Source: Propionibacteriaceae bacterium
GTDB lineage: Bacteria > Actinomycetota > Actinomycetes > Propionibacteriales > Propionibacteriaceae
Reading direction: 5' to 3'
Assembly: GCA_009778725.1 (NCBI GenBank)
Contig: WRFP01000001.1
Span: forward strand, 1 to 54,660
DNA length: 54,660 nt
Below are positions 5,582 through 53,220 of this stretch, one piece after another. Numbering within the stretch: position 1 is the stretch's first letter; every line of letters starts with the position of its first letter. The notes under the pieces are model-generated. The model was not told the DNA's origin. It was given only the letters and a program-made list of their open reading frames with translations, and did no database searches. Both the position numbers and the translations under genes were made by a program.

Positions 5582-6156
5582 GATTCTTGGGCTCTCTCGA
5601 CATGGACTCGTCTGCGTCCCAGGATCAGCGCGTCGCCGATCGACACGCTGACAGGCTCTCCGGGGACCAGGCGGACCGGTTGAGCTCCCTTCCGTACAAG
5701 ATCCGTACCATTGGTGGATCCCCGGTCTCGGAACCATAACCCCTGGTCGTCGAGGCCATACTCCGCATGGGTCTTCGACAATGACCGCTCGGGGTCGTCG
5801 ACTGCCGTACACACTACGGATGGGTTCTGGGACTCGGGATGGCGTCCGAGCAGACCATGGCCACTCACGTGGATTCGTTGGCCAGTGTCGAACACCAAAT
5901 CGATGGAAGGCCTGCCCACCGCGGGCCCGGCTGGCCTGGTGGGAGCGACGGGCCCCGACCATGGGGGCAACGACGGTGGTGCCACCACAGGCGAGTCGTC
6001 ATCAGTTGGTCCGTTGTCGAAGAACTCCGGAGTCCTGGTGCCTGGAACATCCCAGATCAGGAAACCACCGGGATTCGAGGCCACGGGGCGCCCACAGGAT
6101 GGACAGGTGACGCCCGATTCCAGCAACTGAGCCCCGCAGTGCGCACACGTTCCCAT
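5578..6156 (-). CDS. Zinc-ribbon plus FHA domain protein
   Basis: N-terminal CAHCGAQLLESGVTCPSCG. C-terminal FHA motifs: LLGRHP, SLSKTHAEY, GSTNGTDLV. Confidence 0.85.
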   Translation of the reverse strand: MGTCAHCGAQLLESGVTCPSCGRPVASNPGGFLIWDVPGTRTPEFFDNGPTDDDSPVVAPPSLPPWSGPVAPTRPAGPAVGRPSIDLVFDTGQRIHVSGHGLLGRHPESQNPSVVCTAVDDPERSLSKTHAEYGLDDQGLWFRDRGSTNGTDLVRKGAQPVRLVPGEPVSVSIGDALILGRRRVHVERAQES

Positions 6157-10806: not shown

Positions 10807-10862
10807 GGGTCACGATGTCCTTTCCTGGAGATTTCGGCGAAAAGTCGCCACGAATACCGTTG

Positions 10863-31886: not shown

Positions 31887-31979
31887 CTTACGCCAGGTCC
31901 CCCCATGACCAGCCCCATGGTTTACCAAAAGTGACATTTCCGATGCCTGGTGTTTGATGAAAAGATAGAATATTTCTCC

Positions 31980-32744
31980 ATGAAATGGTCTCAGAAGAAC
32001 GCCAACCACCGGATCCAGCACGTCGTAGGGATATCTGCTCTCCTCCTGGTCATCACTGTCACAGTTGCCGGATGCTCGTCGACTCCCTCCGGAGATGCGG
32101 GCCTGGTCTCGTCGGGCTCGGTCACGGCTTCGGTGACCCCTGGTCAGTCACCAACCACCCAGGATAACCAGAACACCGCAACGACAATGCCCAACCAGCA
32201 GGCAGTGGCGAATTTCGAGCAGTTGTGCCAGGAGAAGATTGGGACTGACACACATGCCACGGGAACTGTGACGATCGACCACAAAGCCTGGGGTGCGACA
32301 ACGATCGTGTCCTGTGGTCCTACAGATGTCGTACCCAGCACTGCCGAAGGCGTGCTCGCCGTCGACTCGACTGGAACAGTCACCTGGAACTCAGGCGTAC
32401 CCGCTGACGTCAACAGCCAAGAGTTCGCCCTGGCCAACCCCGCCACAGACGCAAGCGGCAACATCTTCATCACCTACAACCCGGGCCGCTACGACGGAGT
32501 CATGATCCTCCACCCGACCGACACCGGGATGGAAATCCTCGCCGGCAGCTACTACGAGGACATCGACCCCGCGGCAACGACGAGCTATCCCAACGACTTC
32601 TACCAATCACAGTTGGTCGGCCCAGGTTCCGACGGCCTCTATCAGATCGCCAAGTCCGTCAACGACTGCGTCCCCGACTGTGCCAGCGGACAAACCACCA
32701 CCCAGGTGTACGCCTGGAACGGCCAGTCGTACGAAACGAAGTGA
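31980..32744 (+). CDS. Hypothetical lipoprotein
   Basis: MKWSQKNANHRIQHVVGISALLLVITVTVAGCSSTP gives a lipobox. I recognised no family for the mature part. Confidence 0.6.
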   Translation: MKWSQKNANHRIQHVVGISALLLVITVTVAGCSSTPSGDAGLVSSGSVTASVTPGQSPTTQDNQNTATTMPNQQAVANFEQLCQEKIGTDTHATGTVTIDHKAWGATTIVSCGPTDVVPSTAEGVLAVDSTGTVTWNSGVPADVNSQEFALANPATDASGNIFITYNPGRYDGVMILHPTDTGMEILAGSYYEDIDPAATTSYPNDFYQSQLVGPGSDGLYQIAKSVNDCVPDCASGQTTTQVYAWNGQSYETK

Positions 32745-32898
32745 TCGACGCTCACACCCTGATCTGATGAACCTGTCTTCCTGGCAACACTGATCGCCAA
32801 GTCCTAGACGTAAATCAAGGCACTCAAGAATTCGATAGTAGCGGCTGGGAACTCACGTGGCTAGGATGTGGTAAAACCACGAGGCAAGGAGGCCAATC

Positions 32899-34023
32899 AT
32901 GGTCCATTCTGTTCCGCGCATTCTTAGTTTTGTGTGCTCTGGTGCACTGGTTGTGGGATGTCTTTCCATTCCAGTTCTTGCGCAAGCCGACGAGACCAAT
33001 ATCGTTCCCGATGCGGCCCTGCGTCAGTGCCTTGCCACCGCGATGCACACTGCGGGAACGGGAGCTTCCCCGGGGTCACCAGAATATGCAACAGAGGCTG
33101 ACTCTATTTCCCAAGCTGACCTCGATGCCCTCGCAGCCGCAACCACATGGCCCTACGGGATCAGTTGCACAGGTGTGGCTTCATTGGAGGGTTTGCAGTA
33201 TCTTCATGATCCAGAGCTGATGTACTTACGAATACCCACCACAGGAGTCTTCATTCCCCCAGTGGCGTCGCAGGTCACACTTACTTCGGACGACCCGAAT
33301 ATCGTTCAACAGGATGATTCCTATCGAACAACCCCAGTTGAGGAGTGGCCTGAACCGTACTGGACCAACAAGGATGTGACCGTGACTGCCACCAGTACGG
33401 ATCCAGCGGCTGCCATCCGCTACACATCGGTTTTCCCATATACCGATGTCGTGGACCCGCAATCCGCATCCGTCGAAAACTACTTCACAGGGCCTCTGAC
33501 CTTTTCAACTGAAGGTGTACGTCTTATAACTGCCTGGGCAACATCCTGCGATTGCGCCCTTGATGTTTTGTCGCCTGCTTCCATGCTTGTTGCCATCGAC
33601 AAGACACCCCCAACAGTTGATTCTATGCAGGTCGACGGAGGTTTCACCCTTGTCGCACATGACAATCTGTCAGGTGTCGCATCCGTAGAATACATCGGTA
33701 GTGAAAATGGCCCATCAGACTGGACACCATACACCAGCCAAGTCCTCGCCCTGAAAGGAATTGGCGGAACATTCGGGTATCGTGCAACTGACAAAGCTGG
33801 CAATGTCTTCACTTCACCCATCGTCCTTTACGACAATGGAGATCTCTACGTTCCGGGTAATCCTGACTCTGATTCCAACGCATCAGGACCATCTGCCATC
33901 CCCAGTGGAGGCTCAGTGGCTGATCCGACGCATGGATCTGCACTAGCTGCAGCCCTCGGATTGCTGATCATCCTGGGGAGTGGGGCTGCTTTCTTCACTC
34001 GTCGCAACTTACAACACCCGTGA
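32899..34023 (+). CDS. Secreted cell-surface protein with Ig-like/OmpL47-type repeats and a C-terminal TM anchor
   Basis: AAGGAGG RBS. The signal peptide ends PVLAQA-DE. DKTPPTVDS....DNLSGVASVEY...W..Y....YRATDKAGNV resembles an Ig-like surface module. The C-terminus reads ALAAALGLLIILGSGAAFFTRRN, with no LPXTG or LAXTG. Confidence 0.65.
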   Translation: MVHSVPRILSFVCSGALVVGCLSIPVLAQADETNIVPDAALRQCLATAMHTAGTGASPGSPEYATEADSISQADLDALAAATTWPYGISCTGVASLEGLQYLHDPELMYLRIPTTGVFIPPVASQVTLTSDDPNIVQQDDSYRTTPVEEWPEPYWTNKDVTVTATSTDPAAAIRYTSVFPYTDVVDPQSASVENYFTGPLTFSTEGVRLITAWATSCDCALDVLSPASMLVAIDKTPPTVDSMQVDGGFTLVAHDNLSGVASVEYIGSENGPSDWTPYTSQVLALKGIGGTFGYRATDKAGNVFTSPIVLYDNGDLYVPGNPDSDSNASGPSAIPSGGSVADPTHGSALAAALGLLIILGSGAAFFTRRNLQHP

Positions 34024-34377: not shown

Positions 34378-36342
34378 ATGGCCGGTACCGATGTCACTGT
34401 GCCACACAACACATTGCGGCAACGTTTACACACATGGCTCACAGCGCACCCTGCAACCTTGTGGATAACAATACCTATCGTCATCTATCTCGTACTCGTG
34501 GGTCTCGGAGTGACACAGTCGTCAATCGGCATCGACATGTTGAGACAAGATCCTTCGGCACCTTTGGGCCTCCAGATCGGCGCAGCACGTTCCATTCGAA
34601 GTGACGAATTCCTGACCGGGACCCCTAATGCCCTGGGCATCGCTGAAACTGGACAAAACCCTAATCTCAACCCCCTGACCAGCGGCGCTGGGGTTTTTTC
34701 CGGCTACCTCAGTGGCCCAATCTCATCAATTGTTCTGTTCGACCGATCTCTTCTCCGGCTTGGAACCATACTTCCTGTGGCCAATGTATTTTCGGCATAT
34801 TGGTGGCTACCAACCTTACTTCTGACGTTAGCCCTGCCTGCGCTCTTTAAGTTCTTGACCGGTAATCGTTGGTTGGGGCTGTTTGCGGCCGTACTCATGT
34901 TCGCTAATCCGTCCAACGTGTGGTGGAGTTTCTCGCTGACCAACACCCTTGGGTACGCAGTGGCAGGTTCTTTCTGCCTGGTTGCTGCCACTCGAGCCTG
35001 GCGACAGCGCGCATTTCTGAGATCGGTCTTGCTCATGATCCCCACATCAGTGCTCTTGGCGCGCACCGTTTTCCAGTATCAGCCATATGCCATCGTCATG
35101 GTTCCCGGAGTCCTCCTTCCCATCGTTGTGGCGTTGTGGGCGAAAAAGAAGACTCGCATACCAAGCATTATTGCCGTCGGGCTTTCTGGCATCCTCACTC
35201 TCGCATGGGTCGGCATCGTCCTCATTGAGGCACATTCTGAGCTTTCTGCACTGACTGAAACCGTTTATCCAGGGTCACGACGATCCACCGGGTTACCATC
35301 ATCTCCGGGGTCACTCTTCGGCGCTCCGGCGCTGTTCGATCTGGAACATGCCTCAGTGGTCGCAAGCAATCAGTCTGAAATAACGTCTGGCTATAACATC
35401 TTGATTGTTCTCGCACTTGTGCTCGCCCTTTCGGGCCTTCGTTTCACTAGTAGACGACTCGCTTGGGCCTGGCGGGCAGGCGTTGTGGTGTGTGGAATCT
35501 GGCTCGCTTGGTGCATGGTATACACCGGGAGTTGGAGCTCAAGGTTGCCCCTGTTTAACCTCATACCACCGGACAGAGCAAGACAATCAGTAGGAGAAGT
35601 GATTGCGTTCCTGCTGTGCCTGACACTTGCGGCCGCTCCAAAGAAGGGCAAACCAAGAATCGTTTTAATGGGTACTCTCATCACAGCAGGCATCACCGCC
35701 TGGGCTGCTTCCAATCTCAGAGTTGAGAACATTCCGTCACTGGGCTTTCGCGACATCGCCCTGGCCACTATTGGTGTCGGCGCCATCAGTGCACTCCTGC
35801 TCTGGCGGCCACGGCACTGGGCCGGTTATGGCCTGACTGTCATCCTTAGTGCCGCAACAGTGATAACCGTCAACCCGATACTGTTCGGTTTGGGTGATTT
35901 GTACACATCAAGTACCGCTGTGTATTTTCGGGATGCAGGAGTTCAAGCGCGACAAACAGACCACCTGTGGGCAACGGATGACACTGGACTTATCTCTTTA
36001 ATGACAGCCTCAGGTGTACCAACAATCAACAGTCGAATCCTCTCCGGGCCAAACCACGCCGCCTGGAGTCGTCTGGACCCCAACCCGCAGGACATCGACT
36101 TGTGGAACCGTGGTGGTGGCACTCATATCTGGATTCAATGGGACGAGAATGCCACTGATGTCTCACTGTCCAATCCATCACCCGACATCATTCTGATCGA
36201 CTCATCGCCCTGTGTTCTGGCTGCCAGGATACCGAACCTCGAGATGATAACTTCTCACCAACCCCTGAACGCTTCATGCCTCACGTCAGCCGGTACACTC
36301 GAATGGGCTGGCCAAACCAACTACGTGTATTCGGTTAACTAG
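34378..36342 (+). CDS. Large polytopic membrane protein (654 aa), candidate GT-C-type extracytoplasmic glycosyltransferase
   Basis: GGAGAGGA RBS. At least 10 predicted TM helices. An acidic motif lies in the first outside loop after TM1 (ARSIRSDEFL). The C-terminal domain of about 150 aa is soluble. I recognised no family. Confidence 0.5.
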   Translation: MAGTDVTVPHNTLRQRLHTWLTAHPATLWITIPIVIYLVLVGLGVTQSSIGIDMLRQDPSAPLGLQIGAARSIRSDEFLTGTPNALGIAETGQNPNLNPLTSGAGVFSGYLSGPISSIVLFDRSLLRLGTILPVANVFSAYWWLPTLLLTLALPALFKFLTGNRWLGLFAAVLMFANPSNVWWSFSLTNTLGYAVAGSFCLVAATRAWRQRAFLRSVLLMIPTSVLLARTVFQYQPYAIVMVPGVLLPIVVALWAKKKTRIPSIIAVGLSGILTLAWVGIVLIEAHSELSALTETVYPGSRRSTGLPSSPGSLFGAPALFDLEHASVVASNQSEITSGYNILIVLALVLALSGLRFTSRRLAWAWRAGVVVCGIWLAWCMVYTGSWSSRLPLFNLIPPDRARQSVGEVIAFLLCLTLAAAPKKGKPRIVLMGTLITAGITAWAASNLRVENIPSLGFRDIALATIGVGAISALLLWRPRHWAGYGLTVILSAATVITVNPILFGLGDLYTSSTAVYFRDAGVQARQTDHLWATDDTGLISLMTASGVPTINSRILSGPNHAAWSRLDPNPQDIDLWNRGGGTHIWIQWDENATDVSLSNPSPDIILIDSSPCVLAARIPNLEMITSHQPLNASCLTSAGTLEWAGQTNYVYSVN

Positions 36343-36436
36343 TGGTATTCCGGGTGCCTGACACCGGTGGAATCTAAATACCAGAATTATCCAGGTGTCA
36401 TGAGTTACCGCACGAGGAGATGCTAAACTCGCGGTC

Positions 36437-38278
36437 ATGACGGGGGCCACTTCCAATTCTGGTGACGACACGCCATCTGTGGGGGTGAGGGGTCGTTCGC
36501 AGCCATCGTTCACACGAGTAGCCGTGGTGATACTGGGTGTGTTTGTACTCGCTCTCATCGTCGCACTTGTCTTCCATATCGGCGCTCCCCTGCTCCTGCT
36601 GACAGTCGTCCTCCTCTATGTTGTCGTACCGCTACCACGGGCGGGTGACCACGTCATCACAAGAGTGGCGGCACTAGGACTGTTCCTCCCGGTGGGGTAC
36701 AACATCCTGGGTACGGTGGGGTATCTCGTTGGACTTCACGTATCGGCCGACGTGTTCAATGCTTCTTTCGCTGCTGTTCTCACCCCGATACTTCTCCTCC
36801 GCATACGTCGAAATCCCAACCTGAACCTACCCAGGTGGTCATCTTTCGACTCCATAGTCATACTGCCTGTTTTCCTCATTCTGGCTATGGTGTTTATCAC
36901 CGTTTTTCATACCGACTTGTCGCTCGGTGACAACATCATCCGTTACATCGCGAGTTCCTCAGATGGTACGCGGCATCTGGCAATGTTCAATGACCATCTT
37001 CGATATGGCGGTAACTTCACCCTCACCATGGACTCCCGGACCACAGGAGGCACGAGCGGATACCCCACTGGTTGGCACCAAGGCTTCTCGATCATCTTCC
37101 TCAGTGTGTTCACATTCACCTCGTCCACCCCTTTTCACTACGTGGCCTACTCCTACTTCGTGGCAGCCATGATCACCTTGGTAGGCACTTCCTTGTGGGT
37201 CAGTCTTCTGACACTCACCGTCTCTCAACGGATCTCGCCCACTCAGGGCATTCTGTTCACGACATTCACATCCACGGCCGCAACGATGGTGTCACTGTGG
37301 GCAACGGTGGTGATAAGTTTCATTGTTGGCGGTTACGTCAATTTCTACCTTGTGGTTTCCTACTTCGTATGCGCAGTAACAATCGTACTTTGGTCTGACA
37401 TGCTTAACGTCCAGGAGGTGTGTCGCGCAACACTGACTGTCCTCCTCCTCTCGTGTGGCATGTCTGCGACGTGGACCATCCCCGATGTCTTCCTGGCAAT
37501 ACTCCTCATCCCCTTGGGCTATCAACTGATCACAAAACAACGCACGCAGGTGACCTGGCGAGAAGTCACCATGATTGCCTGGGGCGGGCTTGCTGCTGTT
37601 GTCACTGGGTTGACCTGGTTATATGTCATTCTGATCCACACGTCGAACGATGCCATCACTGTTCAAGGAAAAGCGGCCGGGACACCTGACCTGTGGGTGG
37701 TTCTCGTTCTCACAGTGCTATCCGTGCTCACTGCATTCAGGTCAGACTGGCTCACACTCAAGGTGGTGATCACCACCTCGATCGTCGTTTTAGCGGCCAC
37801 TGCCGGGGTCTTCTGGATGATCGCCGGACGGACCCTGCCGTACTACTTTGACAAGATCATGTTAACGATCCTTGCTGTGATCGCACCAATCGGATCATTG
37901 TTCATCATGAACATATTCAAGCGCCGACGCCTGGCAACGGTCTTAGCCATCGTTCTGGTCTTGCCCTTCATCGGGTTACTTGAGTATGTCATGGTCACCC
38001 TCATCAGTTCGGAAGCACTCCTACCTGCAACAGATAAGGAACTCGCGATCGTCACCGAAGCATATCAACGACCATTCAATGAAGGAACACGACAATACAT
38101 CGAAATCACCGATTTTCGGAGAAGTGAATTCTACAATGACATGTTACAAGCTCAATTTGTCAACCCAGGGACCTGTTACTCGGACATTACCTTTCCCTTG
38201 ATGAACCAGGATTGGGATAAGGCCCACCAGGCCGCGCGTACATGCTACGGCGATGATGTTGTTTTCATCGTGCCATAA
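36437..38278 (+). CDS. Large polytopic membrane protein (613 aa), unknown family (polymerase or GT-C-like candidate)
   Basis: At least 12 hydrophobic segments and a C-terminal soluble domain of about 110 aa. This is the lowest-GC stretch of the window. Confidence 0.45.
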   Translation: MTGATSNSGDDTPSVGVRGRSQPSFTRVAVVILGVFVLALIVALVFHIGAPLLLLTVVLLYVVVPLPRAGDHVITRVAALGLFLPVGYNILGTVGYLVGLHVSADVFNASFAAVLTPILLLRIRRNPNLNLPRWSSFDSIVILPVFLILAMVFITVFHTDLSLGDNIIRYIASSSDGTRHLAMFNDHLRYGGNFTLTMDSRTTGGTSGYPTGWHQGFSIIFLSVFTFTSSTPFHYVAYSYFVAAMITLVGTSLWVSLLTLTVSQRISPTQGILFTTFTSTAATMVSLWATVVISFIVGGYVNFYLVVSYFVCAVTIVLWSDMLNVQEVCRATLTVLLLSCGMSATWTIPDVFLAILLIPLGYQLITKQRTQVTWREVTMIAWGGLAAVVTGLTWLYVILIHTSNDAITVQGKAAGTPDLWVVLVLTVLSVLTAFRSDWLTLKVVITTSIVVLAATAGVFWMIAGRTLPYYFDKIMLTILAVIAPIGSLFIMNIFKRRRLATVLAIVLVLPFIGLLEYVMVTLISSEALLPATDKELAIVTEAYQRPFNEGTRQYIEITDFRRSEFYNDMLQAQFVNPGTCYSDITFPLMNQDWDKAHQAARTCYGDDVVFIVP

Positions 38279-38448
38279 CCCGGATCAGACATCTGACCTG
38301 CACGGTTCACCAAAACCTTCGAATGCCGGGACGATGGTCGGGTATTGGCCCTGATTTAAGGAAGATTTACGATAGGGTGAGTTTCGGTCAGGCCTACAAT
38401 TTGGTCTATAACATATCACCCCTTGTCGAATGGAAAAGGAGAAATCGC

Positions 38449-39303
38449 GTGAAGGTGCTTGTCCTGGGAGCTGGTGGAATGGCTGGGCATGTCATGGCGA
38501 TGGTGTTGGCTGACTGTGGCCTTGATGTGACTGGGCTGGCACGAGAACCGGTAGCTTGGGTGGAGAGCATCGTCGCGGATGTGCGGGATGTCGAAAGTTT
38601 GTCCGTGGTGACTCAGTTCGACGCTGTCGTGAACTGTGTCGGCGTACTGAACCGGGCTGTCGATGCCAGTCCCTACTCAGGCATCTGGGTGAATTCCTGC
38701 CTACCTCACCTCCTTGTCGAATTGGCCCGTGACAGCCATACCCGGGTGATCCACCTCAGCACCGACTGTGTCTTCTCCGGGCACGAGGGCGGTGGTTATC
38801 GCGAAGACAGCTTCAGGTCGGCTGACACTCTCTATGGCCGGTCAAAAGCACTGGGCGAAGTGGTCGATGAAAAGAATCTCACACTGAGAACCTCCATTGT
38901 CGGGCCCGACATCAATTCAAACGGGATTGGCCTGTTCACATGGTTCATGCAGCAATCGGGCAGCGTCCCAGGTTACACGCGCGTACCCTGGTCGGGCGTG
39001 ACGACCATTGCACTCGCAAGCGCCGTCGACGCGGCACTGAAGCAGGAACTGACAGGGCTCTACCATCTGGTCAACAACACCACGATCAGCAAGTACGATT
39101 TGCTGGGGCTGTTCAACGATCTGAGGGATGTTCCAGTCACCCTTGCCGCATCGGACGTGGTTCAAGAAGACAAATCTCTGATCGACACCCGTCACGATCT
39201 TAATTTTACAGTCCCAACATATGCCGATATGGTACATGATATGGGGAAATGGATAAACGAACATTCTCAACTCTATCCTCACTATCAAATGAAGACACTC
39301 TGA
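38449..39303 (+). CDS. RmlD-like SDR reductase (dTDP-4-dehydrorhamnose reductase family; WbvR-type candidate)
   Basis: GTG at 38449 with AAGGAG 7 nt upstream. Rossmann motif VLVLGAGGMAGHV, plus STDCVFSG and YGRSK (YxxxK). 284 aa. Confidence 0.7.
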   Translation: MKVLVLGAGGMAGHVMAMVLADCGLDVTGLAREPVAWVESIVADVRDVESLSVVTQFDAVVNCVGVLNRAVDASPYSGIWVNSCLPHLLVELARDSHTRVIHLSTDCVFSGHEGGGYREDSFRSADTLYGRSKALGEVVDEKNLTLRTSIVGPDINSNGIGLFTWFMQQSGSVPGYTRVPWSGVTTIALASAVDAALKQELTGLYHLVNNTTISKYDLLGLFNDLRDVPVTLAASDVVQEDKSLIDTRHDLNFTVPTYADMVHDMGKWINEHSQLYPHYQMKTL

Positions 39304-40697: not shown

Positions 40698-41726
40698 GTG
40701 AAAATCCACGTTCTCAATCACCACTTCTGGCCAGATGGATCACCGTCGGCAGTGCTTGAAGAAGAGTTGGCGGACAGCTTGTGCCAGATGGGATATGAGA
40801 CTGTTCTCGTGGGTGGGTCTGGGTCATTCCACCACACCACTCGTCCGTCACCGCAGTCTCCCGTGCTCCGACTGCGGTCGGGAGAACGGGGGAAGCGCAA
40901 CTCACAATTTGCCATCTTGTACGACTATTGGCGTTTCTGGAAGGCGGCTTGGGCGTACATCAAGACCCAGGTATCTCCTGGGGACGCGCTCCTAGCAACC
41001 TCGTCACCGTTCCTCAATGTCTTCCTAGTCCGAGTTGTCCGCCGGTCTGACCCCGGAGTGGTTACCATCTTTCACCTTCATGACTACCTTCCCAGCAATC
41101 TGCGTTCCCTCAGCATCGTTCATCGTCTTGCAGCTCCGTTTGTCAAACTGGTGACCGACCACTTCCTCAAACAATGGGATCTCGTCCTGTCATGCGCAGG
41201 CAACATCGCATATAAAAAATCGAATTGTGTTGTGGCTCGCTTCTGGCCCACGATACAAGGACCCATCACCAAGAAACCATCGCCAGCCCGTCGAGCTCTC
41301 TACGCCGGAAACCTGGGAATTGCACACGATGTCGATGCACTGATCCGGCAAATGGGGCGCCTCCACGCCGACGGATGGGGAATCGACTTCTTCGGGGATG
41401 GACCCATGGCTGACAAACTCCCCTCCTTCGTTGACAAACATCCTTTTGTCTCTGGAGATGACTACGTTGAGACCCTTAGATCCCACCCCATCCACTTCGT
41501 CACCGGTGTCGGGCGGGACGGCACTGGCGCGTTCCCGTCGAAGACTTTTAATTCCCTGTACGTGGGAGCACAGGTCGTGCCGTGTGGATTCAGCCCTGAA
41601 ATGCTCGAAGAACTGGAATACCTGCGCAAGGTTCCTGATCTGGCCGACAACCGACGTTACGCCGCTTCGGTGGTGGACCGATTTCTGAAAAGAGCTCCAG
41701 CCTCCGGGATCAGATCATGGTCGTGA
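40698..41726 (+). CDS. GT-B glycosyltransferase, WbuB-like (candidate L-hexosamine transferase)
   Basis: MKIHVLNHHFWPDGSPSAVLEEELA is a WbuB-like N-terminus. YAGNLGIAHD is present. It lies next to FnlA/FnlC-type genes. GTG start. Confidence 0.55.
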   Translation: MKIHVLNHHFWPDGSPSAVLEEELADSLCQMGYETVLVGGSGSFHHTTRPSPQSPVLRLRSGERGKRNSQFAILYDYWRFWKAAWAYIKTQVSPGDALLATSSPFLNVFLVRVVRRSDPGVVTIFHLHDYLPSNLRSLSIVHRLAAPFVKLVTDHFLKQWDLVLSCAGNIAYKKSNCVVARFWPTIQGPITKKPSPARRALYAGNLGIAHDVDALIRQMGRLHADGWGIDFFGDGPMADKLPSFVDKHPFVSGDDYVETLRSHPIHFVTGVGRDGTGAFPSKTFNSLYVGAQVVPCGFSPEMLEELEYLRKVPDLADNRRYAASVVDRFLKRAPASGIRSWS

Positions 41727-42839
41727 GAATAATCCTTGTCGCCGCTGGTGTGAATGCACCGTGCCGACGATGAAGGAAACGACTCGTATCGAGGTATCGT
41801 CAACCTGATAGTCGACCGGCGGACGCGGCCGGGGAAGCGCAAGGACCAAGTCCAACGCAGCCAGCACACTGTTTACCTCCAACCCGGCGGTGATGATGGA
41901 CCCCGTGTCAAGCGCTTCGGGGCGCTCGACAAAGTCCCTCAAGGTGATAGCTGGAAAAGACAGGATTGAGGATTCTTCGCTGATCGTCCCCGAGTCTGAC
42001 AAGACGGCTTTGGCTTCGCACTGGAGTTTGACATAGTCATGGAAACCAAACGGCGGGTGGAAAATCAGCCCGTCGGTTGTCGCCTCGGGCAACGCCTCAA
42101 GTCGTTTGCGGGTCCTCGGGTGAGTCGACACGAGTACGGGCATGTTATAGGCCTCATGGACCACCCTCAGACACTCCAAGCCCGCCCGGAGGCGGTCAGG
42201 GTAGTCGACGTTCTCCTCCCTGTGCAGACTCACCAGGAAGTACTCCCCAGGCACGAGTCCTTGGTTTGACAAAACCTGGCTAGCCTCAATCTGCTCGCGG
42301 TTATTGTCCAGCACCTCAACCATCGGCGATCCCGTCACGAGGATTGTGGAGGGGTGGATGCCCTCAGCCAGCAAATTGCGGCGGGCATGCTCGGTGTAAG
42401 CGAGATTGTAGTCAGCCAGATGGTCGATGATGCGCCGGTTTGTTTCCTCGGGCACATTCTGGTCGAATGAGCGATTCCCAGCCTCCATGTGAAACACCGG
42501 AACGCGCATCTTTTTTGCCATGATCGCGGACATACATGAATTGGTGTCTCCCAAGATCAAGAAGGCATCCGGTCTGACGCTCGTGATCGCTTGCTCGGTC
42601 TTGGCGATGATCGACCCCAGGGCGGCTCCCAACGACGACACGTCAGCATCAAGGAAGAGGTCTGGCGAACGCAACCCCAAGTCTTCAAAGAAAACTTCGT
42701 TCAACTCGTAGTCATGATTCTGGCCTGTGTGGACCAACACATGGTTCACGTGCTTGTCCAACAGCTTGATCGTCGGAGTCAGCCGGATGATTTCCGGGCG
42801 TGTCCCCACTACGGTCATCACTGTGAGGGCAGCCATCAC
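41715..42839 (-). CDS. UDP-N-acetylglucosamine 2-epimerase, non-hydrolysing (FnlC/CapG/WbvD type)
   Basis: MTVVGTRPEIIRLTPTIKLLDKHVNHVLVHTGQNHDYELNEVFFEDLGL and HMEAGNRSFDQNVPEETNRRIIDH. The start (GTG 42839 or ATG 42836) overlaps the upstream stop. Confidence 0.85.
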   Translation of the reverse strand: MMAALTVMTVVGTRPEIIRLTPTIKLLDKHVNHVLVHTGQNHDYELNEVFFEDLGLRSPDLFLDADVSSLGAALGSIIAKTEQAITSVRPDAFLILGDTNSCMSAIMAKKMRVPVFHMEAGNRSFDQNVPEETNRRIIDHLADYNLAYTEHARRNLLAEGIHPSTILVTGSPMVEVLDNNREQIEASQVLSNQGLVPGEYFLVSLHREENVDYPDRLRAGLECLRVVHEAYNMPVLVSTHPRTRKRLEALPEATTDGLIFHPPFGFHDYVKLQCEAKAVLSDSGTISEESSILSFPAITLRDFVERPEALDTGSIITAGLEVNSVLAALDLVLALPRPRPPVDYQVDDTSIRVVSFIVGTVHSHQRRQGLFSRP

Positions 42840-43867
42840 TCCACTCCCGCCCGTCGCAACTCTTCCTGTACCTCAGGAAGCTCCATCAGCAAAGCCTTAG
42901 TCTGGTCGACATCCAACCGGGTCGTGTTGGCCGAAGTGTACGCCTCGGCCTCCGCATCTTGGCGTCCCTGGTCGAAGTATTTCTCGTACTGGAGTCCGCG
43001 AGCGTCGACTGGGACCCGGAAGTAGGCGCCCTCATCCATCGCTCCTACTCTCTCCTCAGCCGACAACAATGTCTCATGGAGCTTTTCCCCATGACGATGA
43101 CCGATCACTCGGATCTCGGGCTCATCCACCCCGAATAATGACGCCACCGCCCGGGCCAAGACTTCGATCGTCGCTGCGGGCGCTTTCATCACGAACAAAT
43201 CACCTGGCTCGGCATGTTCAAACGCATACTCAACCAATTGCACTGACTGAGCCAGGGACATCAAGAAACGTGTCATCTGCCCATCGGTCACAGTCAACTC
43301 TTGCCCAGATGTCACCTGACGTACGAACAACGGGATCACCGACCCTCGTGAATACATCACGTTCCCGTACCGGGTCAACGCCACAGTCAATTCTGAACCT
43401 GGGTTGTTCCGGGCAAAGGCCTGGACGGTTTTTTCCATGAGTGCTTTGGTCATTCCCATGGCATTGATGGGATAGACAGCCTTATCCGTACTGAGACACA
43501 CCAGAGACTTCACGCCAGATTGCGATGCGACAGCCACGACATTTTCGCTGCCGATCACGTTGGTGGCGACCGCTTGGCCTGGGAAGAACTCGCACGACGG
43601 GACTTGCTTCAATGCCGCCGCATGAAAGACATAGTCAACTCCCCGTAGTGCCGGCCGTAGACTCTCCCGATCCCGGGTGTCGCCGATAAAGAACCGCACT
43701 CGCTCGTCACCGACACGACGGCGCATATCATCCTGCTTGGCCTCATCACGACTCAGCACATGCACACCTGCCACTCCCGACTCCAACGCATGACGAGTCA
43801 TCGTCGACCCGAATGATCCGGTGCCTCCTGTAATCGCAACGACTTTGCCCTGCAACGTGAGACTCAT
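42836..43867 (-). CDS. UDP-GlcNAc 4,6-dehydratase/5-epimerase (FnlA/CapE/WbvB type)
   Basis: GKVVAITGGTGSFGSTMTRH...VLSRDEAKQDDMRRR...FFIGDTRD and STDKAVYPINAMGMTKALMEK. ATG at 43867 with GGAGTGGAG upstream; the track start is a TTG at 43882. Confidence 0.85.
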   Translation of the reverse strand: MSLTLQGKVVAITGGTGSFGSTMTRHALESGVAGVHVLSRDEAKQDDMRRRVGDERVRFFIGDTRDRESLRPALRGVDYVFHAAALKQVPSCEFFPGQAVATNVIGSENVVAVASQSGVKSLVCLSTDKAVYPINAMGMTKALMEKTVQAFARNNPGSELTVALTRYGNVMYSRGSVIPLFVRQVTSGQELTVTDGQMTRFLMSLAQSVQLVEYAFEHAEPGDLFVMKAPAATIEVLARAVASLFGVDEPEIRVIGHRHGEKLHETLLSAEERVGAMDEGAYFRVPVDARGLQYEKYFDQGRQDAEAEAYTSANTTRLDVDQTKALLMELPEVQEELRRAGVE

Positions 43868-43945
43868 CTCCACTCCAATCAATCAGACCAATTCTGAAGC
43901 TTGTGACAACTTTTATCCGCAGCCCATCAGCTTAGTACACACCGG

Positions 43946-44314
43946 TCACTCCTCAGATGCACCCGACGTCTCATCACCTGGAGGGTTCTCCAGAGCATGC
44001 CTGAGGAGAGCCGACTCCTCCGCCAGACGACGAACGCGGTCTTCCAAGCGCGTGACTTCCAATGACAAATGAATACAAACTCCCAACAGCAGTATCAGCG
44101 CCAACGCGAAGAGCAGGTTCGATGCAACCTGTACCCCCACCAACCTGGCCACATACCCCAGGAGGGCTGGAAATGCTGCCAAGACGATGGCGATGACACC
44201 GACACCCAACCACAGAATGGCATATTTCTCTGATATTCTCCGCGACCGTAACAGTGCAACAATGATGGCTACGACAATTAATGCCAAAAACAAGAACAAT
44301 ATCGTAGTGCGCAC
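43946..44314 (-). CDS. DUF2304 small membrane protein
   Basis: Four hydrophobic segments followed by a C-terminal amphipathic coil (LEVTRLEDRVRRLAEESALLRHALE). It sits immediately downstream of a GT2 gene, the usual DUF2304 context. Confidence 0.7.
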   Translation of the reverse strand: MRTTILFLFLALIVVAIIVALLRSRRISEKYAILWLGVGVIAIVLAAFPALLGYVARLVGVQVASNLLFALALILLLGVCIHLSLEVTRLEDRVRRLAEESALLRHALENPPGDETSGASEE

Positions 44315-44318
44315 AGCT

Positions 44319-45047
44319 TCAATCCTTTGGTGGAGTCGTTGGCCTGGTCAGCGCGATGAGCAGAGCAAGCAGACTTCGACCCAGATAGATGACTGACTTC
44401 ACCGGTGAGGTCGAGGGTTTGCCTGCCTGACGCTGTCGCATCTGGACAGGAACCTGGGTCACGGTGAGTCCTGATCGAACTGCCATGACCAAGGAGTCTA
44501 CGGTGTCACCCAGATACTCCGTTGGAAAATGAATTCTATACTGCTCGATCGCTCGTCGGTTTCCGGCACGAAATCCACTCGTGACATCGGTAAGCCGCGT
44601 GTGTGCCAAACCTGAAATGACGCGGGCAAGGATCCCCATCATGAGACGCCGGGAGGCTCCGGCAGAGTAACTTCCCACACCAGCGAACCTAGCCCCAATG
44701 GCAATGTCTGCTTCTCCCAGTGCTTCGAGAATACGGGGAATGTCTCTCGGATCATGCTGACCGTCTGCGTCCAACTGGAGAACTTGGTCATAGTCGTTAC
44801 GGTGGGCGTACTCGAACCCAGCTCGTAAGGCTCCCCCCACACCCAGATTGAAGGGGAGGCGCAACACCGAAACCCCAGAGTTTTGAGCGATGTCGGCGGT
44901 GTCATCACGGGAACCATCGTCGACGACCAAAGTGTCGATTGCGAGGTGTTGACTGCCCAATTCAGCCAGTGTCTCACCAATCACAGCTCCTTCATTCCAA
45001 GCCGGAATGATCACGAGGGTTCGAGGAGATGCGTCAGGATCGACCAT
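44319..45047 (-). CDS. GT2 polyprenyl-phosphate glycosyltransferase (DPM1/GtrB/PpgS-like)
   Basis: LVIIPAWNEGAVIG, VVDDGSRDDT and QLDADGQHDP (the DxD). It is 242 aa and soluble, with no C-terminal TM domain. Confidence 0.8.
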   Translation of the reverse strand: MVDPDASPRTLVIIPAWNEGAVIGETLAELGSQHLAIDTLVVDDGSRDDTADIAQNSGVSVLRLPFNLGVGGALRAGFEYAHRNDYDQVLQLDADGQHDPRDIPRILEALGEADIAIGARFAGVGSYSAGASRRLMMGILARVISGLAHTRLTDVTSGFRAGNRRAIEQYRIHFPTEYLGDTVDSLVMAVRSGLTVTQVPVQMRQRQAGKPSTSPVKSVIYLGRSLLALLIALTRPTTPPKD

Positions 45048-45084: not shown

Positions 45085-46353
45085 TCATTGTTCTTCGGTC
45101 CCACGATCTGATGTGCGAGGGATCGCCATCATGCCAGTGACATGGACAATAACTCCACACGAGGATCCGCCGATGAGGGCCACGATGACTGTGACTGAAA
45201 GGGTCCACGGAATCCACAACATCCCGATCGTCACCACGATGGCGACGACCCACCCCGTCATGTAGACCGTATGTTGATTATTGGCCAGGGCCAATGTTCC
45301 TGTCAGAACGACGAGACATAAGAAGGCTGCACCTAAGGTCAGCCCACCCACTAGTAGTGGTCCGAGTCGATATTCGGGGCGCACCAAACCCAGCAGAGGC
45401 GGCCCAATGATCCCTGCCACAATCGACGCCAGAACGCCCAGCCCCAGAACAGCAAGCACGATTCGACCAACGACTCGAGGACTTCCTCCCCGCTTGACGA
45501 AGTGAGCAACGATCATCGACTGGAAGGCGTTCAGAGGCAGCATCAATGGAGCCCGTGTCATAGAAATTGCGAAGAGCAACCCGGCCGATTCTTGGATGAT
45601 GCTGTTGCCCTCGACAAGTCCCAAAAGCGTGGGAAAACCAACCACCAATGCTGTACTGGCTAAAGTCGCCACGACCGCTTGGCTAGTTTTCCCAACATAT
45701 TCACGCACATTAGTGTCACCTCGGCTGCCGAGAATCGAACGGTATCCTTTGAAGACGAGAACCAGCACCACCCAGGTCAACGTTGCCACACCCGCCGCCA
45801 GCTTCACACCGACTAGACCTGACAATGCCAATGCAGCAATGACGATAGCGACACTGCGAACAAGCGGATCAGCCACCATGAGTACGGCCGCAGACACCCA
45901 CCGTCCCTGTCCGCCAAGAACCCCCACGACCGAGGTGTACCCCCCGTAGACGATTGCAGCCAATGCGACAACGACCACTGACAACAGCCAGTCCGAGCCA
46001 AAAACCCGCGGAGCCCACAGCAACGATGACAAGAAGAAGATCGCAACAACCCCTGTGGCAACGCCAAGTCCCGCAGGCACGACACGGACGTGATGCGTGG
46101 CTGGCACCACCATGGCTTCATCTCCAGCAAGAGCCGCAGTACGAGTGGATCGTACTGTTTCGAATTGGATGCCGCCCAAGGATCCAAAGACCCAGAAGAG
46201 CACAGACCAAAAAACAAGGAACTGGGCATTGAGTTCAGGGGACAAGACCTTCGCCATCACTACCATGAGAACGAAGCCGGCTACTCCGGCAATGCCACCT
46301 GCCAAGCCCACGGACCCCACACCAGTGAGGGTCTGCCTCGTCGGTAACTTCAC
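45085..46353 (-). CDS. Polysaccharide flippase-like (Wzx/MOP-type) membrane protein
   Basis: 422 aa with about 12 TM helices, located inside the glycan locus. I read no diagnostic motif. Confidence 0.55.
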   Translation of the reverse strand: MKLPTRQTLTGVGSVGLAGGIAGVAGFVLMVVMAKVLSPELNAQFLVFWSVLFWVFGSLGGIQFETVRSTRTAALAGDEAMVVPATHHVRVVPAGLGVATGVVAIFFLSSLLWAPRVFGSDWLLSVVVVALAAIVYGGYTSVVGVLGGQGRWVSAAVLMVADPLVRSVAIVIAALALSGLVGVKLAAGVATLTWVVLVLVFKGYRSILGSRGDTNVREYVGKTSQAVVATLASTALVVGFPTLLGLVEGNSIIQESAGLLFAISMTRAPLMLPLNAFQSMIVAHFVKRGGSPRVVGRIVLAVLGLGVLASIVAGIIGPPLLGLVRPEYRLGPLLVGGLTLGAAFLCLVVLTGTLALANNQHTVYMTGWVVAIVVTIGMLWIPWTLSVTVIVALIGGSSCGVIVHVTGMMAIPRTSDRGTEEQ

Positions 46354-46535: not shown

Positions 46536-47528
46536 TCATCGAATACCTTCTTGCCGCATGACAACCATCATGTAATTTGAACCCAAGCGGGTGTGTTTAC
46601 GAATCTCCCGGCGAGAGCGTGCGTACATCGGCAGCCGAAGCAGACCGATCACGTAAGTACCAAGTACTTTGCGCATGCCCTTGACTCCGTGATCGTGCTT
46701 GACTTGTTGCAGGAAATCCTTGATCCCTTTGAGTAACTCAGGCATGGACAGGAAGATCAAACGCCATGGTGTGTTTTTGTACACCACAGCCAGATGGTTG
46801 CGGGCCGTCATGATCACCGGGTACATCTTCATGTTCTTCTTGGCACTCACCGATCCCATATGGTACGCAACTGCCGTTGGCACAAAGAACGAGTCATATC
46901 CTGCCACCAAGGCGCGATACGCGACATCGACGTCTTCGTAGTACATGTAAAAGCGCTCGTCGAAGAAGTAACTGTCGGGGTCAGGTTGGTGCTCGATGAA
47001 ATCGCGGCTGAACATCGCCGCTGCGGCATTGACACCAAAGACCTTTCGAGGATAGTACGCCTCGTGATCCACCAGTTCGGTGTAGCCGTACTGAATCCCC
47101 TGGAGTCGCTTCGACACATAGATATGGCGGGAATCGACAATGTGATGGTCGTAATAATCTAAGGTCAAACCCTGGGCCGCTGCCACAGAAGGTTTGCCGT
47201 CAACGTAGTCCAAAATGTTGCGGGTCCACTGCGTGTCCAACACCGCATCCGAATTGATCAGTGCCACCCACTGCACATCTGGATTTCGCAGAGCGTGCCG
47301 AATGAGAACATTGTTTCCCTTAGCGAACCCGAGGTTACGCGTGGACTTGAGAAGATGAACCTTGCGATACTTGCGCACCTGTGTGATCGTGTCGTCTGAG
47401 GAATCATTGTCCAGAACATAGACATCAGACTTCACACCGGCCTGCGCAAAGATGGAATCGATGCATCCGGCAATGATGTCCGCATTGTTCCAGGTGACGA
47501 TCAGGTACGCTACTGTCCGATTTTCCAT
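46536..47528 (-). CDS. GT2-family glycosyltransferase (WbbL/rhamnosyltransferase-like)
   Basis: YLIVTWNNADIIAGCIDSI and YVLDNDSSDDT, with LINSDAV as the DxD region. Confidence 0.75.
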   Translation of the reverse strand: MENRTVAYLIVTWNNADIIAGCIDSIFAQAGVKSDVYVLDNDSSDDTITQVRKYRKVHLLKSTRNLGFAKGNNVLIRHALRNPDVQWVALINSDAVLDTQWTRNILDYVDGKPSVAAAQGLTLDYYDHHIVDSRHIYVSKRLQGIQYGYTELVDHEAYYPRKVFGVNAAAAMFSRDFIEHQPDPDSYFFDERFYMYYEDVDVAYRALVAGYDSFFVPTAVAYHMGSVSAKKNMKMYPVIMTARNHLAVVYKNTPWRLIFLSMPELLKGIKDFLQQVKHDHGVKGMRKVLGTYVIGLLRLPMYARSRREIRKHTRLGSNYMMVVMRQEGIR

Positions 47529-50834: not shown

Positions 50835-51171
50835 GTACGATGGCCTCTCCGTTTTTATGGGCTCGTGAGTTTACAGTACGACTCGCACGCGCCTGGAGCA
50901 ACATCGATACGTGTTCACGCCGGGAAAGCCTCTCATCGATTTTATCGAGCATCTATACTCTGTATGGATGGTGCTGTCATTGGGAGTCCCAATGGCGTGG
51001 CCTCATGGTCACCACGCGCGCAGGATATCTGCCCGTCTCAGGCTGGTTCAGCATCTTGGACCGCAATGGCTACACGTGGTTGACTTATCTGGTCAACACA
51101 GGAAGGCGGATCAGACATTGAGCACAGCCAGTGATCGAGCCGATCGCCTGTCACAGGAACCTCTCCATGAC

Positions 51172-52017
51172 ATGTTCCCGCGACACACGATGCTGAAGGG
51201 ATCTCTTGGCTCCATCCAAGAAATCTGGAAGCGCCGAGAATTGGTCAACCTGCTCGTACGCCGCGAGATCCGGGCCAAGTACAAGGACTCTGCCCTCGGC
51301 CTGGTCTGGAGTTTGATCCGCCCCTTGGTGCTGCTGGCGATCTACTACGTCGTCATCGGCAAGTTCCTGGGAGCCACCAGGATGATCGCGAACTTCCCCA
51401 TCCACCTCTACGCCGGGCTGACCCTGTGGACCTTGTTCCAAGAGGCGGTCTTCGCCGGAACCGGGTCGATCCTCGCCAATTCGGCCATCGTCAAGAAGAC
51501 GGCACTGCCCCGTGAGATCTTCCCGCTGACCAGCATCGGCGCGGCTGGTTTCAATTTCACCATCCAGTTGGTGATCCTCATCGTGGCCGTCTCCTTCACC
51601 ACCGGGTTCGACTGGTCGATCGGCTTCCTCCACTTCCCCCTGGCCATCGTGACGATCGTCACCTGGGCGACCGCCTTCGCCCTGCTGCTGTCCGCCCTCA
51701 ACGTCTACATGCGCGACGTCCAGCACCTGGTCGAAGTGGTCCTGATGATCGGATTCTACGTATCACCGGTCATCTACAGCTGGGGAATGGCCGCTCCCCA
51801 CCTGTCCGGGGTGTTGCAGGAAATCTACCTGGCCAACCCGATCACACTGGCTGTGATGGGCACCCAACGAGTCGTCTGGGACGCCACTCCACCCTTCCCG
51901 TGGCCCACCCACTTGGGAACCCGTCTGCTCATCGCGTGGATCGTCGGTCTCGTGGCAGTTTTCTTGGCACAACGCCTCTTCAATCGCCTTCAAAGCAACT
52001 TTGCCCAGGAGATCTAG
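51172..52017 (+). CDS. ABC-2 type polysaccharide export permease (Wzm/TagG/RfbD-like)
   Basis: EIWKRRELVNLLVRREIRAKYKDSALGLVWSLIRPL is the ABC-2 N-terminal signature. Six TM helices. The start is uncertain (TTG 51118, ATG 51172 or ATG 51190). Confidence 0.8.
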   Translation: MFPRHTMLKGSLGSIQEIWKRRELVNLLVRREIRAKYKDSALGLVWSLIRPLVLLAIYYVVIGKFLGATRMIANFPIHLYAGLTLWTLFQEAVFAGTGSILANSAIVKKTALPREIFPLTSIGAAGFNFTIQLVILIVAVSFTTGFDWSIGFLHFPLAIVTIVTWATAFALLLSALNVYMRDVQHLVEVVLMIGFYVSPVIYSWGMAAPHLSGVLQEIYLANPITLAVMGTQRVVWDATPPFPWPTHLGTRLLIAWIVGLVAVFLAQRLFNRLQSNFAQEI

Positions 52018-53220
52018 ATGGGTGTTGAGGTCGTACGGGTCACGGATGTCAACAAGACATTCACCATCAAGAAACAAAAGTCTCTCAAAGAGCGCTTGGT
52101 CAATTACCGTACTGGCAAACTCCATGAAGAGACCTTCGCCGCGTTGAAAGACATTAACCTGTCCATCGATCTGGGAGAGTCGGTCGGTTTGATCGGCCCG
52201 AACGGATCCGGGAAATCGACTCTGTTGAAAATCATCGGCGGGATCCTGTCTCCAGACTCCGGCCAGGTCTTCACCAGAGGACGAGTTGCGGCACTGCTCG
52301 AATTGGGGGCAGGTTTCCATCCAGACTTGTCGGGCCGGGAGAACACCTTCCTGAACGCATCCGTGCTCGGATTGACCCGCGAGGAGACTGAGCAGCATTT
52401 CGACGAGATTGTTGAATTCTCCGGTATCGGGAACTTCATCGACACCCAAGTCAAGTTCTACTCCTCGGGGATGTACGTCCGCCTCGCCTTCGCCGTCGCT
52501 GTCCATGTCGATCCGGACATCCTGCTCGTTGACGAGGTCCTCGCCGTCGGCGATGAGCCCTTCCAGAAGAAATGCATGGATAAGATCCATAGTTTCCAGG
52601 AGGAGGGCCGGACCATAGTCTTCGTGTCTCACTCGCCGGGCCAAGTGGCGGATGTGTGTGACCGCGCGATCGTGCTCGAACAAGGATCGCTGGTCGAGGA
52701 CTCGACCCCCATCGTCGCCCTCGGGCGGTTGCGCCGGGACTACCAGGAGGTCATTGCCGCCGATCAGGCGGACCAGGAATCCTCCTCCTCCCCCTATGAG
52801 GCCAAGATCGACCGCATCTACCTCACCGACTCCCGTGGTTCTCCCCACGACTCCGATTTCCAGGTGGTGATGCCACCGGGATCCGACCTTGAAATCAACT
52901 GCGAGGTAGCCTTCCCTCAGGCCGTCCCGAACTGGGCCTTTTCAGTCATCATCGAAGACTTTCTTGGCCGTACCATGGTGGAAACAGACACCCGAGAAAC
53001 TCTGCACGTGAACATGCCTTCTCAAGCCGGCACAGTACGTTTTCAGATCGCCTTGCCCGCTCTGCAACTCGGGGAGGGTGAGTACACCGTTCGGGTCAGC
53101 GTTCGTGACGATCAGGACCGGGTTCTGGATCTGCTCACTCACGCCGGTAATTTCGCCGTACGAAGCTTGAAACATGTCCTGGGACCTGTCTATTGCGAGC
53201 CCCAAGTCACCATTTTGTGA
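52018..53220 (+). CDS. Polysaccharide export ABC ATPase (Wzt/TagH/RfbE-like) with a C-terminal extension of about 150 aa
   Basis: Walker A GPNGSGKST, signature YSSGMYVRLAFA, Walker B LLVDEVLAVGD. A beta-rich C-terminal domain follows (residues ~255-400). Confidence 0.88.
   Translation: MGVEVVRVTDVNKTFTIKKQKSLKERLVNYRTGKLHEETFAALKDINLSIDLGESVGLIGPNGSGKSTLLKIIGGILSPDSGQVFTRGRVAALLELGAGFHPDLSGRENTFLNASVLGLTREETEQHFDEIVEFSGIGNFIDTQVKFYSSGMYVRLAFAVAVHVDPDILLVDEVLAVGDEPFQKKCMDKIHSFQEEGRTIVFVSHSPGQVADVCDRAIVLEQGSLVEDSTPIVALGRLRRDYQEVIAADQADQESSSSPYEAKIDRIYLTDSRGSPHDSDFQVVMPPGSDLEINCEVAFPQAVPNWAFSVIIEDFLGRTMVETDTRETLHVNMPSQAGTVRFQIALPALQLGEGEYTVRVSVRDDQDRVLDLLTHAGNFAVRSLKHVLGPVYCEPQVTIL

Follow-up and report, generated by a model that had tools for sequence, protein, structure and literature searches.

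Two adjacent membrane proteins in a Propionibacteriaceae wall-glycan locus as predicted GT-C glycosyltransferases of the outer membrane face

What do two large, adjacent membrane proteins, here called P0001 and P0002, do in the wall-glycan locus of an uncultured Propionibacteriaceae bacterium? We addressed this question in a window of 54,660 nucleotides, the whole stretch of DNA that was analysed (contig WRFP01000001.1 of assembly GCA_009778725.1). A preliminary description had called both proteins orphans and proposed that one or both act outside the membrane as glycosyltransferases (GT) of the GT-C fold, together with a pair of proteins resembling PpgS and DUF2304. Predicted folds, gene linkage across genomes and homology to DUF6541 support this proposal, and we assign a probability of roughly 70% to the general mechanism in which P0001 and P0002 are GT-C enzymes of a multi-component system that decorates a wall polysaccharide at the outer face. 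The two open reading frames (ORFs) were found where the description had placed them:

34378-36342, plus strand: P0001, 654 amino acids, with DUF7657 as a membrane domain of 13 transmembrane helices and DUF7654 as an outer, beta-rich C-terminal domain; predicted GT-C enzyme
36437-38278, plus strand: P0002, 613 amino acids, a near-orphan with 15 transmembrane helices and an outer C-terminal domain of ~85 amino acids with two invariant cysteines; predicted GT-C enzyme

The orphan label did not survive for P0001, in which residues 31-417 match Pfam DUF7657 (E = 3e-42, 145 bits against a cut-off of 26) and residues 523-653 match Pfam DUF7654 (E = 1e-12, 48.1 bits against a cut-off of 27). Homologs numbered 36, the best being 87% identical and encoded in a Propionibacteriaceae metagenome-assembled genome (MAG), and the family exceeded the cut-off in 14 of 401 genomes of its class. 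No NCBIfam model matched P0001, and neither the protein nor its family profile gave a meaningful sequence match in the PDB. The AlphaFold (AF2) model, from 37 sequences, was of high score (predicted local distance difference test, pLDDT, 91.7; predicted TM-score, pTM, 0.90) and comprises the 13 helices followed by a beta-rich C-terminal domain of ~150 amino acids that carries two invariant cysteines. In the model, a first loop of 90 residues after the first transmembrane helix (43-133) contains helices, and a loop of 51 residues between the seventh and eighth (285-335) contains short helices. Short loops rich in lysine and arginine (AKKKTR at 254-259, RFTSRR at 355-360 and KKGKPR at 421-426) mark the cytoplasmic side, which puts the long loops and the C-terminal domain outside.

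Sequence conservation in P0001 is concentrated on the outer face, where the alignment and the model together place nearly all invariant polar residues. R74, D76 and E77 are invariant across the 37 family sequences and begin a helix (75-91) of the first outer loop; the acidic SDE motif noted earlier in this loop was indeed present as R74-S75-D76-E77. T295, Y297, P298, G299 and R301, all in the loop between the seventh and eighth helices, are also invariant, as is R400. A Foldseek search of the PDB with the P0001 model returned the arabinosyltransferase AftA as the best match (E = 3e-4, probability 1.0), and further matches were yeast and human STT3, DPY19, EmbB, ALG3 and Pmt4 (TM-scores 0.25-0.41). 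Three hallmarks of GT-C enzymes taken from the AftA structure paper (PMC10265970), namely the helix arrangement, an acidic residue in the first loop and an outer loop between the seventh and eighth helices that acts as donor gate, are all found in P0001. Comparisons of the P0001 family by hhalign gave probabilities of 0.2% against the P0002 family, 1.6% against an extended P0002 profile (below), ≤2% against AftA, 9% against DUF6541 and ≤2% against DUF2142; because these were negative, the assignment of P0001 is one made at the level of the fold. On this basis P0001 is a predicted GT-C glycosyltransferase, with D76 and E77 as candidate catalytic residues.

P0002 comes closer to being an orphan. 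A word-indexed search returned only the protein itself, and a full HMMER scan of 1.84 billion representative proteins found 14 relatives (E = 9e-40 to 6e-5), for which near-orphan is the better term. There was no match to P0002 in Pfam or NCBIfam, nor in the PDB by sequence or with the family profile. The AF2 model (pLDDT 76.7, pTM 0.84) has 15 helices, a loop of 75 residues after the fifth helix (158-233) and a small C-terminal domain, such that the expectation of polytopic proteins with soluble C-terminal domains held for both proteins. Arginine and lysine clusters at 122-125, 265, 367-375, 436 and 496-499 fix the topology, and positive-inside counts together with the model place the long loop, a site formed by Y469, Y470 and K473, and the C-terminal domain outside. 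Residues invariant in the family alignment are R76, D138, D176, Y209, P210, G212, W213, Y240, W346, Y469, Y470, K473, C580 and C603, while H180 and H214 are near-invariant and residues 209-214 form the motif YPTGWH. In the alignment and model, D176 and H180 sit in the first long outer loop. Foldseek again returned AftA first (E = 0.03, probability 1.0), followed by ArnT (0.87) and PglB (0.75), with TM-scores of 0.32-0.38. The comparison with GT-C folds that had been set out as a check on the proposal placed both models nearest to solved GT-C enzymes, less clearly for P0002 than for P0001, with AftA at the head of each list.

The same lists bear on whether one or both proteins could instead be transporters or flippases for glycan or lipid intermediates, lacking transferase activity. 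We consider this highly improbable: the many transmembrane helices and the occurrence of some major facilitator superfamily and secondary transporters low in the Foldseek lists would fit, but those matches, including the ones to P0001, had probabilities of ≤0.25 and TM-scores of ≤0.15. Moreover, invariant polar residues are concentrated at the outer interface of the membrane and in the outer loops and not in the bilayer core, and the locus already encodes the exporter Wzm/Wzt and a Wzx-like protein.

Profile comparisons connected P0002 with AftA by way of DUF6541. P0002 gave no match to the Pfam DUF6541 model (PF20176), and one member of its family matched it at E = 0.017. The closest relative of P0002, P0040, lies on a metagenomic contig (L005) with a second paralog that matches the P0002 family profile at 98.6% and Pfam DUF6541 weakly (E = 8.5e-5, below the cut-off). 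We compared an extended profile, consisting of the P0002 family and five distant relatives, with 20 actinobacterial DUF6541 proteins, which gave a probability of 94.4% (E = 8.6e-8) over P0002 residues 73-224. DUF6541 in turn is clearly homologous to AftA, with which it aligned in hhalign (97.3%, E = 1.7e-11, 421 columns), with the position of the catalytic aspartate and a YPxxW motif in common. Along this chain, D176-x3-H180 of P0002 corresponds to D-x3-H in DUF6541 and to D-x3-R in AftA, the aspartate and arginine of which are the catalytic pair D128/R132 of the Mycobacterium tuberculosis enzyme (PMC10265970), and YPTGWH corresponds to YPAAWH in DUF6541 and YPPGW in AftA. The best local alignment between P0002 and AftA, though not significant, spans the same motifs. 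As judged from these profiles, P0002 is a remote homolog of DUF6541, and it is a predicted GT-C enzyme of an AftA/DUF6541-like superfamily with D176 and H180 as candidate catalytic residues.

DUF6541 was above the cut-off in 36 of 301 genomes of the class, and in several genera its genes adjoin a PpgS-like GT2 gene (with or without DUF2304) and Wzm/Wzt, which is the same gene company that DUF7657 keeps. The mycobacterial DUF6541 gene lies 8-18 kb from aftA, with a small gene, a Wzt-like gene and then a Wzm-like gene downstream of it, an order that we take to be the Rv3779-Rv3780-rfbE-glfT1-rfbD order of M. tuberculosis. The DUF6541 model also matches Corynebacterium glutamicum, in which the Rv3779 ortholog is Cgp_0658 (PMC9671496). 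A contig scan for an M. tuberculosis copy of DUF6541 returned only closer Mycobacterium and Mycolicibacterium relatives, and the equation of DUF6541 with Rv3779 is therefore drawn from synteny. No mention of DUF7657, DUF7654 or DUF6541 was found in the literature searched.

The contig that carries P0040 contains two distant paralogs of the P0002 superfamily (4139-6112, minus strand, and 9045-10949, plus strand) in a single ABC-transporter (ATP-binding cassette) glycan locus. It also encodes a PpgS-like GT2 with a partner of 120 amino acids and a small EamA-like membrane protein of 118 amino acids, which could be an ArnE/F-like flippase.

As for the coding sequences themselves, the P0001 start is preceded by a GGAGAGGA ribosome-binding site. 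Upstream of P0002, a mini-ORF of six codons (ATG CTA AAC TCG CGG TCA TGA, 36420-36440) stands directly after GAGGAG, and its TGA stop shares an ATGA with the ATG of P0002, an overlap that could couple or modulate translation of P0002. Alternatively, translation may really begin at the GTG at 36524, as in the public gene call, which begins 29 codons downstream and yields 584 amino acids. The region of both genes has the lowest G+C content of the window, as had been remarked before (0.535-0.545, compared with 0.60-0.66 in the first 30 kb). Promoter and terminator sites predicted in our scan were no more numerous than in shuffled sequence.

Together with the genes around them, which are listed below, P0001 and P0002 make up a complete wall-glycan locus in the window:

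38323-39303, plus strand: RmlD/WbvR-like 4-reductase of the variable cassette, 39% identical to the reductase beside P0040
39432-40583, plus strand: Leloir glycosyltransferase of family GT4 (GT-B fold), variable cassette
40698-41726, plus strand: soluble protein of 342 amino acids with weak matches to the GT4 N-terminal domain (GT-B-like), 84% identity in the relative locus L001
41715-42839, minus strand: WecB-type UDP-N-acetylhexosamine (UDP-HexNAc) 2-epimerase, FnlC/WbvD-like (226 bits, cut-off 210)
42836-43882, minus strand: FnlA/CapE/WbvB-like UDP-N-acetylglucosamine (UDP-GlcNAc) 4,6-dehydratase/5-epimerase (414 bits to FnlA, below the equivalog cut-off)
43946-44314, minus strand: small DUF2304 protein of the GacJ/Rv3632 type with three transmembrane helices, presumed activator of the GT2
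44319-45047, minus strand: GT2 of 242 amino acids, PpgS/GacI-like polyprenyl-phosphate sugar synthase with PpgS as best NCBIfam match
45085-46353, minus strand: protein of 422 amino acids with ~12 transmembrane helices, candidate Wzx/GacK-like flippase
46536-47528, minus strand: soluble GT2 of 330 amino acids with no transmembrane helix
47533-50834, minus strand: two tandem paralogous GT2 genes (532 and 531 amino acids, 62% identical over 529 residues), presumed backbone polymerising enzymes
50911-53220, plus strand: exporter of the completed backbone, formed by Wzm, an ABC-2 permease, and Wzt, an ATPase that carries the carbohydrate-binding domain Wzt_C

The GT2 and DUF2304 genes proposed to work with P0001 and P0002 are adjacent on the same strand, as described previously, and the GT2 scored 104 bits to PpgS, below the equivalog cut-off. 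GacJ and Rv3632 are DUF2304 proteins that each stimulate their GT2 partner (bioRxiv 10.1101/180810; PMC3485146), and by analogy with such systems a GT2/DUF2304 pair is a hallmark of outer-face decoration. Taken together, the FnlA-like, WecB-like and RmlD-like enzymes predict UDP-2-acetamido-2,6-dideoxy-L-hexose as a product. Because the locus encodes GT2 genes along with Wzm/Wzt, the backbone is assigned to the ABC-transporter route. Homologs of the 422-residue protein are named 'O-antigen/teichoic acid export membrane protein' by the Joint Genome Institute; it had one weak Pfam match and none in NCBIfam or the PDB. We also asked whether the 330-residue GT2 could be a second lipid-sugar synthase, of the GtrB-like type, and rejected this because it has no transmembrane helix. 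AftA_N had no match in the window's own genome, and the acceptor cannot be arabinogalactan because this genome is without AftA.

We then assessed gene linkage in 13 genomes, 12 of which carried DUF7657 above the cut-off. DUF2304 was present in eight, and DUF7657 and DUF2304 lay within 10 kb of each other in six of these (within ~1.3 kb in four), the other two being broken by contig ends; the chance expectation for this linkage is ~0.5% per genome. GT2, DUF2304 and DUF7657 are contiguous on one strand in loci L024, L025 and L026, in the order GT2-DUF2304-DUF7657 in the first two and reversed in the third, and are divergent in L027. In the window and in L001, L004, L028 and L029, the three genes occur within 10 kb. 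Across all these loci, Wzm/Wzt frequently lie close by. A protein of 689 amino acids beside the DUF7657 gene of L004 was tried as a P0002 relative and proved unrelated, with only two hydrophobic segments. The linkage independently supports the GT-C assignment of P0001.

Comparison with L001, the locus with the 87% identical P0001, separated the two proteins. L001 retains P0001, the 342-residue protein and the Wzx-like protein, along with DUF2304, the PpgS-like GT2 and the other GT2 genes. Missing from it are the genes for P0002, the reductase and the GT4, as well as the FnlA-like and WecB-like ones. A GT1 and a WsaF-like glycosyltransferase take the place of P0002, the reductase and the GT4, and L001 has an additional gene, for a DUF2142 membrane protein, between those for the Wzx-like protein and the 330-residue GT2. 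Since the PpgS-like pair is kept in L001 without P0002, its conserved partner is P0001 and not P0002. The gene content of L001 likewise groups P0001 with the conserved core and P0002 with the sugar cassette. The two closest relatives of P0002 each have an RmlD-like reductase within a few genes, and each overlaps an upstream GT-B gene. The GT4 beside P0040 was examined as a counterpart of the window's GT4 and showed no similarity to it.

Gene neighbourhoods also speak to the idea that P0001 glycosylates proteins in the manner of PMT or PglB, with the products of the surface-protein and lipoprotein genes immediately upstream (31950-34023) as candidate substrates. Surface-protein genes do lie directly upstream, STT3 and Pmt4 are among the fold matches of P0001, and a Ppm1-like polyprenyl-phosphate-mannose synthase is encoded beside an Lnt-like gene on contig C72 of the same genome. 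In other genera, however, DUF7657 accompanies Wzm/Wzt and polysaccharide glycosyltransferase genes and not conserved surface-protein genes, and the upstream surface proteins are not kept even in the 87% identical L001, leaving protein glycosylation with little credence in our view.

Combining these results, we propose that the wall polysaccharide would be synthesized in the cytoplasm by GT2 enzymes and exported by Wzm/Wzt, and that its decoration would follow a separate path. The 242-residue GT2 and the DUF2304 protein would load the sugar of a UDP-sugar onto polyprenyl phosphate, and the lipid-linked sugar may be extended by Leloir glycosyltransferases of the locus before being flipped, probably by the 422-residue Wzx-like protein. 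P0001 would then take the sugar or oligosaccharide off the lipid and attach it to the exported glycan, D76 and E77 in the first outer loop serving as catalytic acid/base. P0002 would be a second, cassette-specific GT-C enzyme with D176 as catalytic base, which may either add a further side-chain sugar or polymerise the lipid-linked unit, like WpsI of Lactococcus lactis. Linkage to the PpgS-like GT2 and DUF2304 genes suggests, by analogy, that both proteins may use polyprenyl-phosphate sugar donors. We infer the donor sugar, the acceptor, the role of the flippase and the division of labour alike, and we hold the specific division of labour between P0001 and P0002 only tentatively, at somewhat less than even odds. 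In a simpler alternative, P0002 would add a second monosaccharide. A more elaborate version, which we regard as rather unlikely, is an actinobacterial 'dual-chain' arrangement in the lactococcal style, where a 6-deoxy-L-HexNAc oligosaccharide on polyprenyl monophosphate would be flipped by the Wzx-like protein, polymerised by P0002, which would then be a new GT-C polymerase related to AftA and Rv3779, and ligated by P0001 to the ABC-exported backbone. If that were true, swapping of the second GT-C enzyme with its sugar cassette (P0002 here, DUF2142 in L001) would drive serotype-like variation.

A further alternative is that P0002, or both proteins, could be Wzy-type polymerases or WaaL-type ligases that use repeat units linked to polyprenyl diphosphate, not monophosphate donors. 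Both proteins are polytopic, poorly conserved and cassette-linked, as is typical of Wzy proteins, and the locus does contain a Wzx-like protein. We nevertheless judge this improbable, as there was no Wzy_C or O-antigen ligase match in Pfam (E up to 1), and no WaaL-like or RodA/FtsW-like structure appeared among the top 50 fold matches of either protein, with AftA, ArnT, PglB and STT3 matching best. The motif chain, moreover, ends at the catalytic aspartate of AftA, and the main chain already has its own ABC exporter.

Several known systems resemble the proposed decoration by P0001 and P0002. GacI, GacJ, GacK and GacL form a four-component system that adds GlcNAc side chains to the group A carbohydrate of Streptococcus pyogenes (bioRxiv 10.1101/180810; PMC9574508), with which the locus shares an ABC-transporter-dependent backbone, a GT2 with a DUF2304 activator for making the polyprenyl-phosphate sugar, a candidate Wzx-like protein of ~12 transmembrane helices and a polytopic, predicted GT-C protein acting outside. 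The locus differs in being actinobacterial, in having two GT-C proteins served by one GT2/DUF2304 pair, and in that P0001 and P0002 are dissimilar to each other and matched no Pfam or NCBIfam GT-C model, GacL itself not having been compared. The Wps system of L. lactis combines conserved components (WpsA/B, WpsG and the GT-C ligase WpsJ) with a GT-C polymerase, WpsI, that occurs in particular variants (PMC9574508). Here the likeness extends to a GacI/GacJ-like pair, a candidate Wzx-like flippase, extra Leloir glycosyltransferases and two proteins of predicted GT-C fold, the conserved P0001 resembling WpsJ, the ligase to the backbone, and the cassette-specific P0002 resembling WpsI; however, no WpsH/Wzz-like co-polymerase was recognised in the window locus, and the protein families differ.

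Mycobacterial PpgS (Rv3631), Rv3632 and Rv3779 decorate arabinogalactan with galactosamine (PMC3485146, PMC9671496). The GT2 of the window best matches PpgS, its DUF2304 protein belongs to the Rv3632 family and P0002 is remotely related to DUF6541, whose mycobacterial gene occupies what we take to be the Rv3779 position; yet P0002 falls below the DUF6541 Pfam model and resembles it only profile to profile over residues 73-224, and arabinogalactan is unavailable as acceptor. AftA (Rv3792, GT85, structure 8if8; PMC10265970) is the best structural match for both models. Features in common are additional N-terminal transmembrane helices preceding the GT-C core, an outward-facing soluble C-terminal domain, an aspartate (catalytic in AftA) in the first long outer loop that is followed at the fourth position by a basic residue, and a motif of the YPPGW type. 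AftA differs in that there is no direct sequence homology, in that P0002 has four extra N-terminal helices compared with two in AftA, and in that the C-terminal domains of P0001 and P0002 are smaller and unrelated in sequence, with no decaprenyl-phosphate-arabinose pathway in evidence.

Several results weigh against an outer-face GT-C role. The Foldseek E-values are modest for both P0001 (3e-4) and P0002 (0.03), with all TM-scores below 0.5. For P0001, no sequence-level link to any characterised GT-C family was found. The P0002-DUF6541 alignment is confined to residues 73-224, the link from there to AftA is transitive, and direct hhalign comparison of the P0002 family with AftA gave a probability of ≤2%, which is not significant, with either the basic or the extended profile. 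The probable identity of DUF6541 with the Rv3779 family is argued from synteny and the M. tuberculosis gene order, and not from a named sequence. In addition, five of the 13 surveyed genomes were without DUF2304, and the Wzx-like assignment depends on source names and one weak Pfam match. Finally, because the window's genome is a MAG that is 70% complete, partners of the system may be missing from it.

Which side chains a Gram-positive wall glycan bears depends on GT-C enzymes of multi-component systems. These side chains serve as phage receptors and antigens; the enzymes themselves are difficult to find because they have almost no sequence in common. For DUF7657/DUF7654 we propose a testable function as the transferase partner of PpgS- or GacI-GacJ-type pairs in Actinobacteria. 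DUF6541, to which the near-orphan P0002 is tied, is in our proposal a family related to AftA and probably the one to which Rv3779 belongs, and the comparison with L001 indicates that the second GT-C enzyme is exchanged along with its sugar cassette. Streptococci, lactococci and mycobacteria already provide established examples of the mechanism, which would therefore not surprise a specialist; both protein families were previously unstudied.

Upstream of P0001, a protein of 374 amino acids (32899-34023) has an N-terminal signal or anchor and a C-terminal transmembrane helix. Its score for the NCBIfam OmpL47-type beta-barrel domain is barely above the cut-off (41.4 compared with 40 bits), and Pfam recognised no LPXTG motif in it (E = 0.07). 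On other contigs of the same genome, the Ppm1-like synthase, a GT2, and the Lnt-like (apolipoprotein N-acyltransferase-like) gene beside it occupy positions 6110-8659 of contig C72, and a DUF2142 membrane protein 51% identical to that of L001 is encoded in another glycan gene group (contig C82, 1856-3424). Other donors are therefore available in this genome, which also carries a second Wzm/Wzt pair on contig C2.

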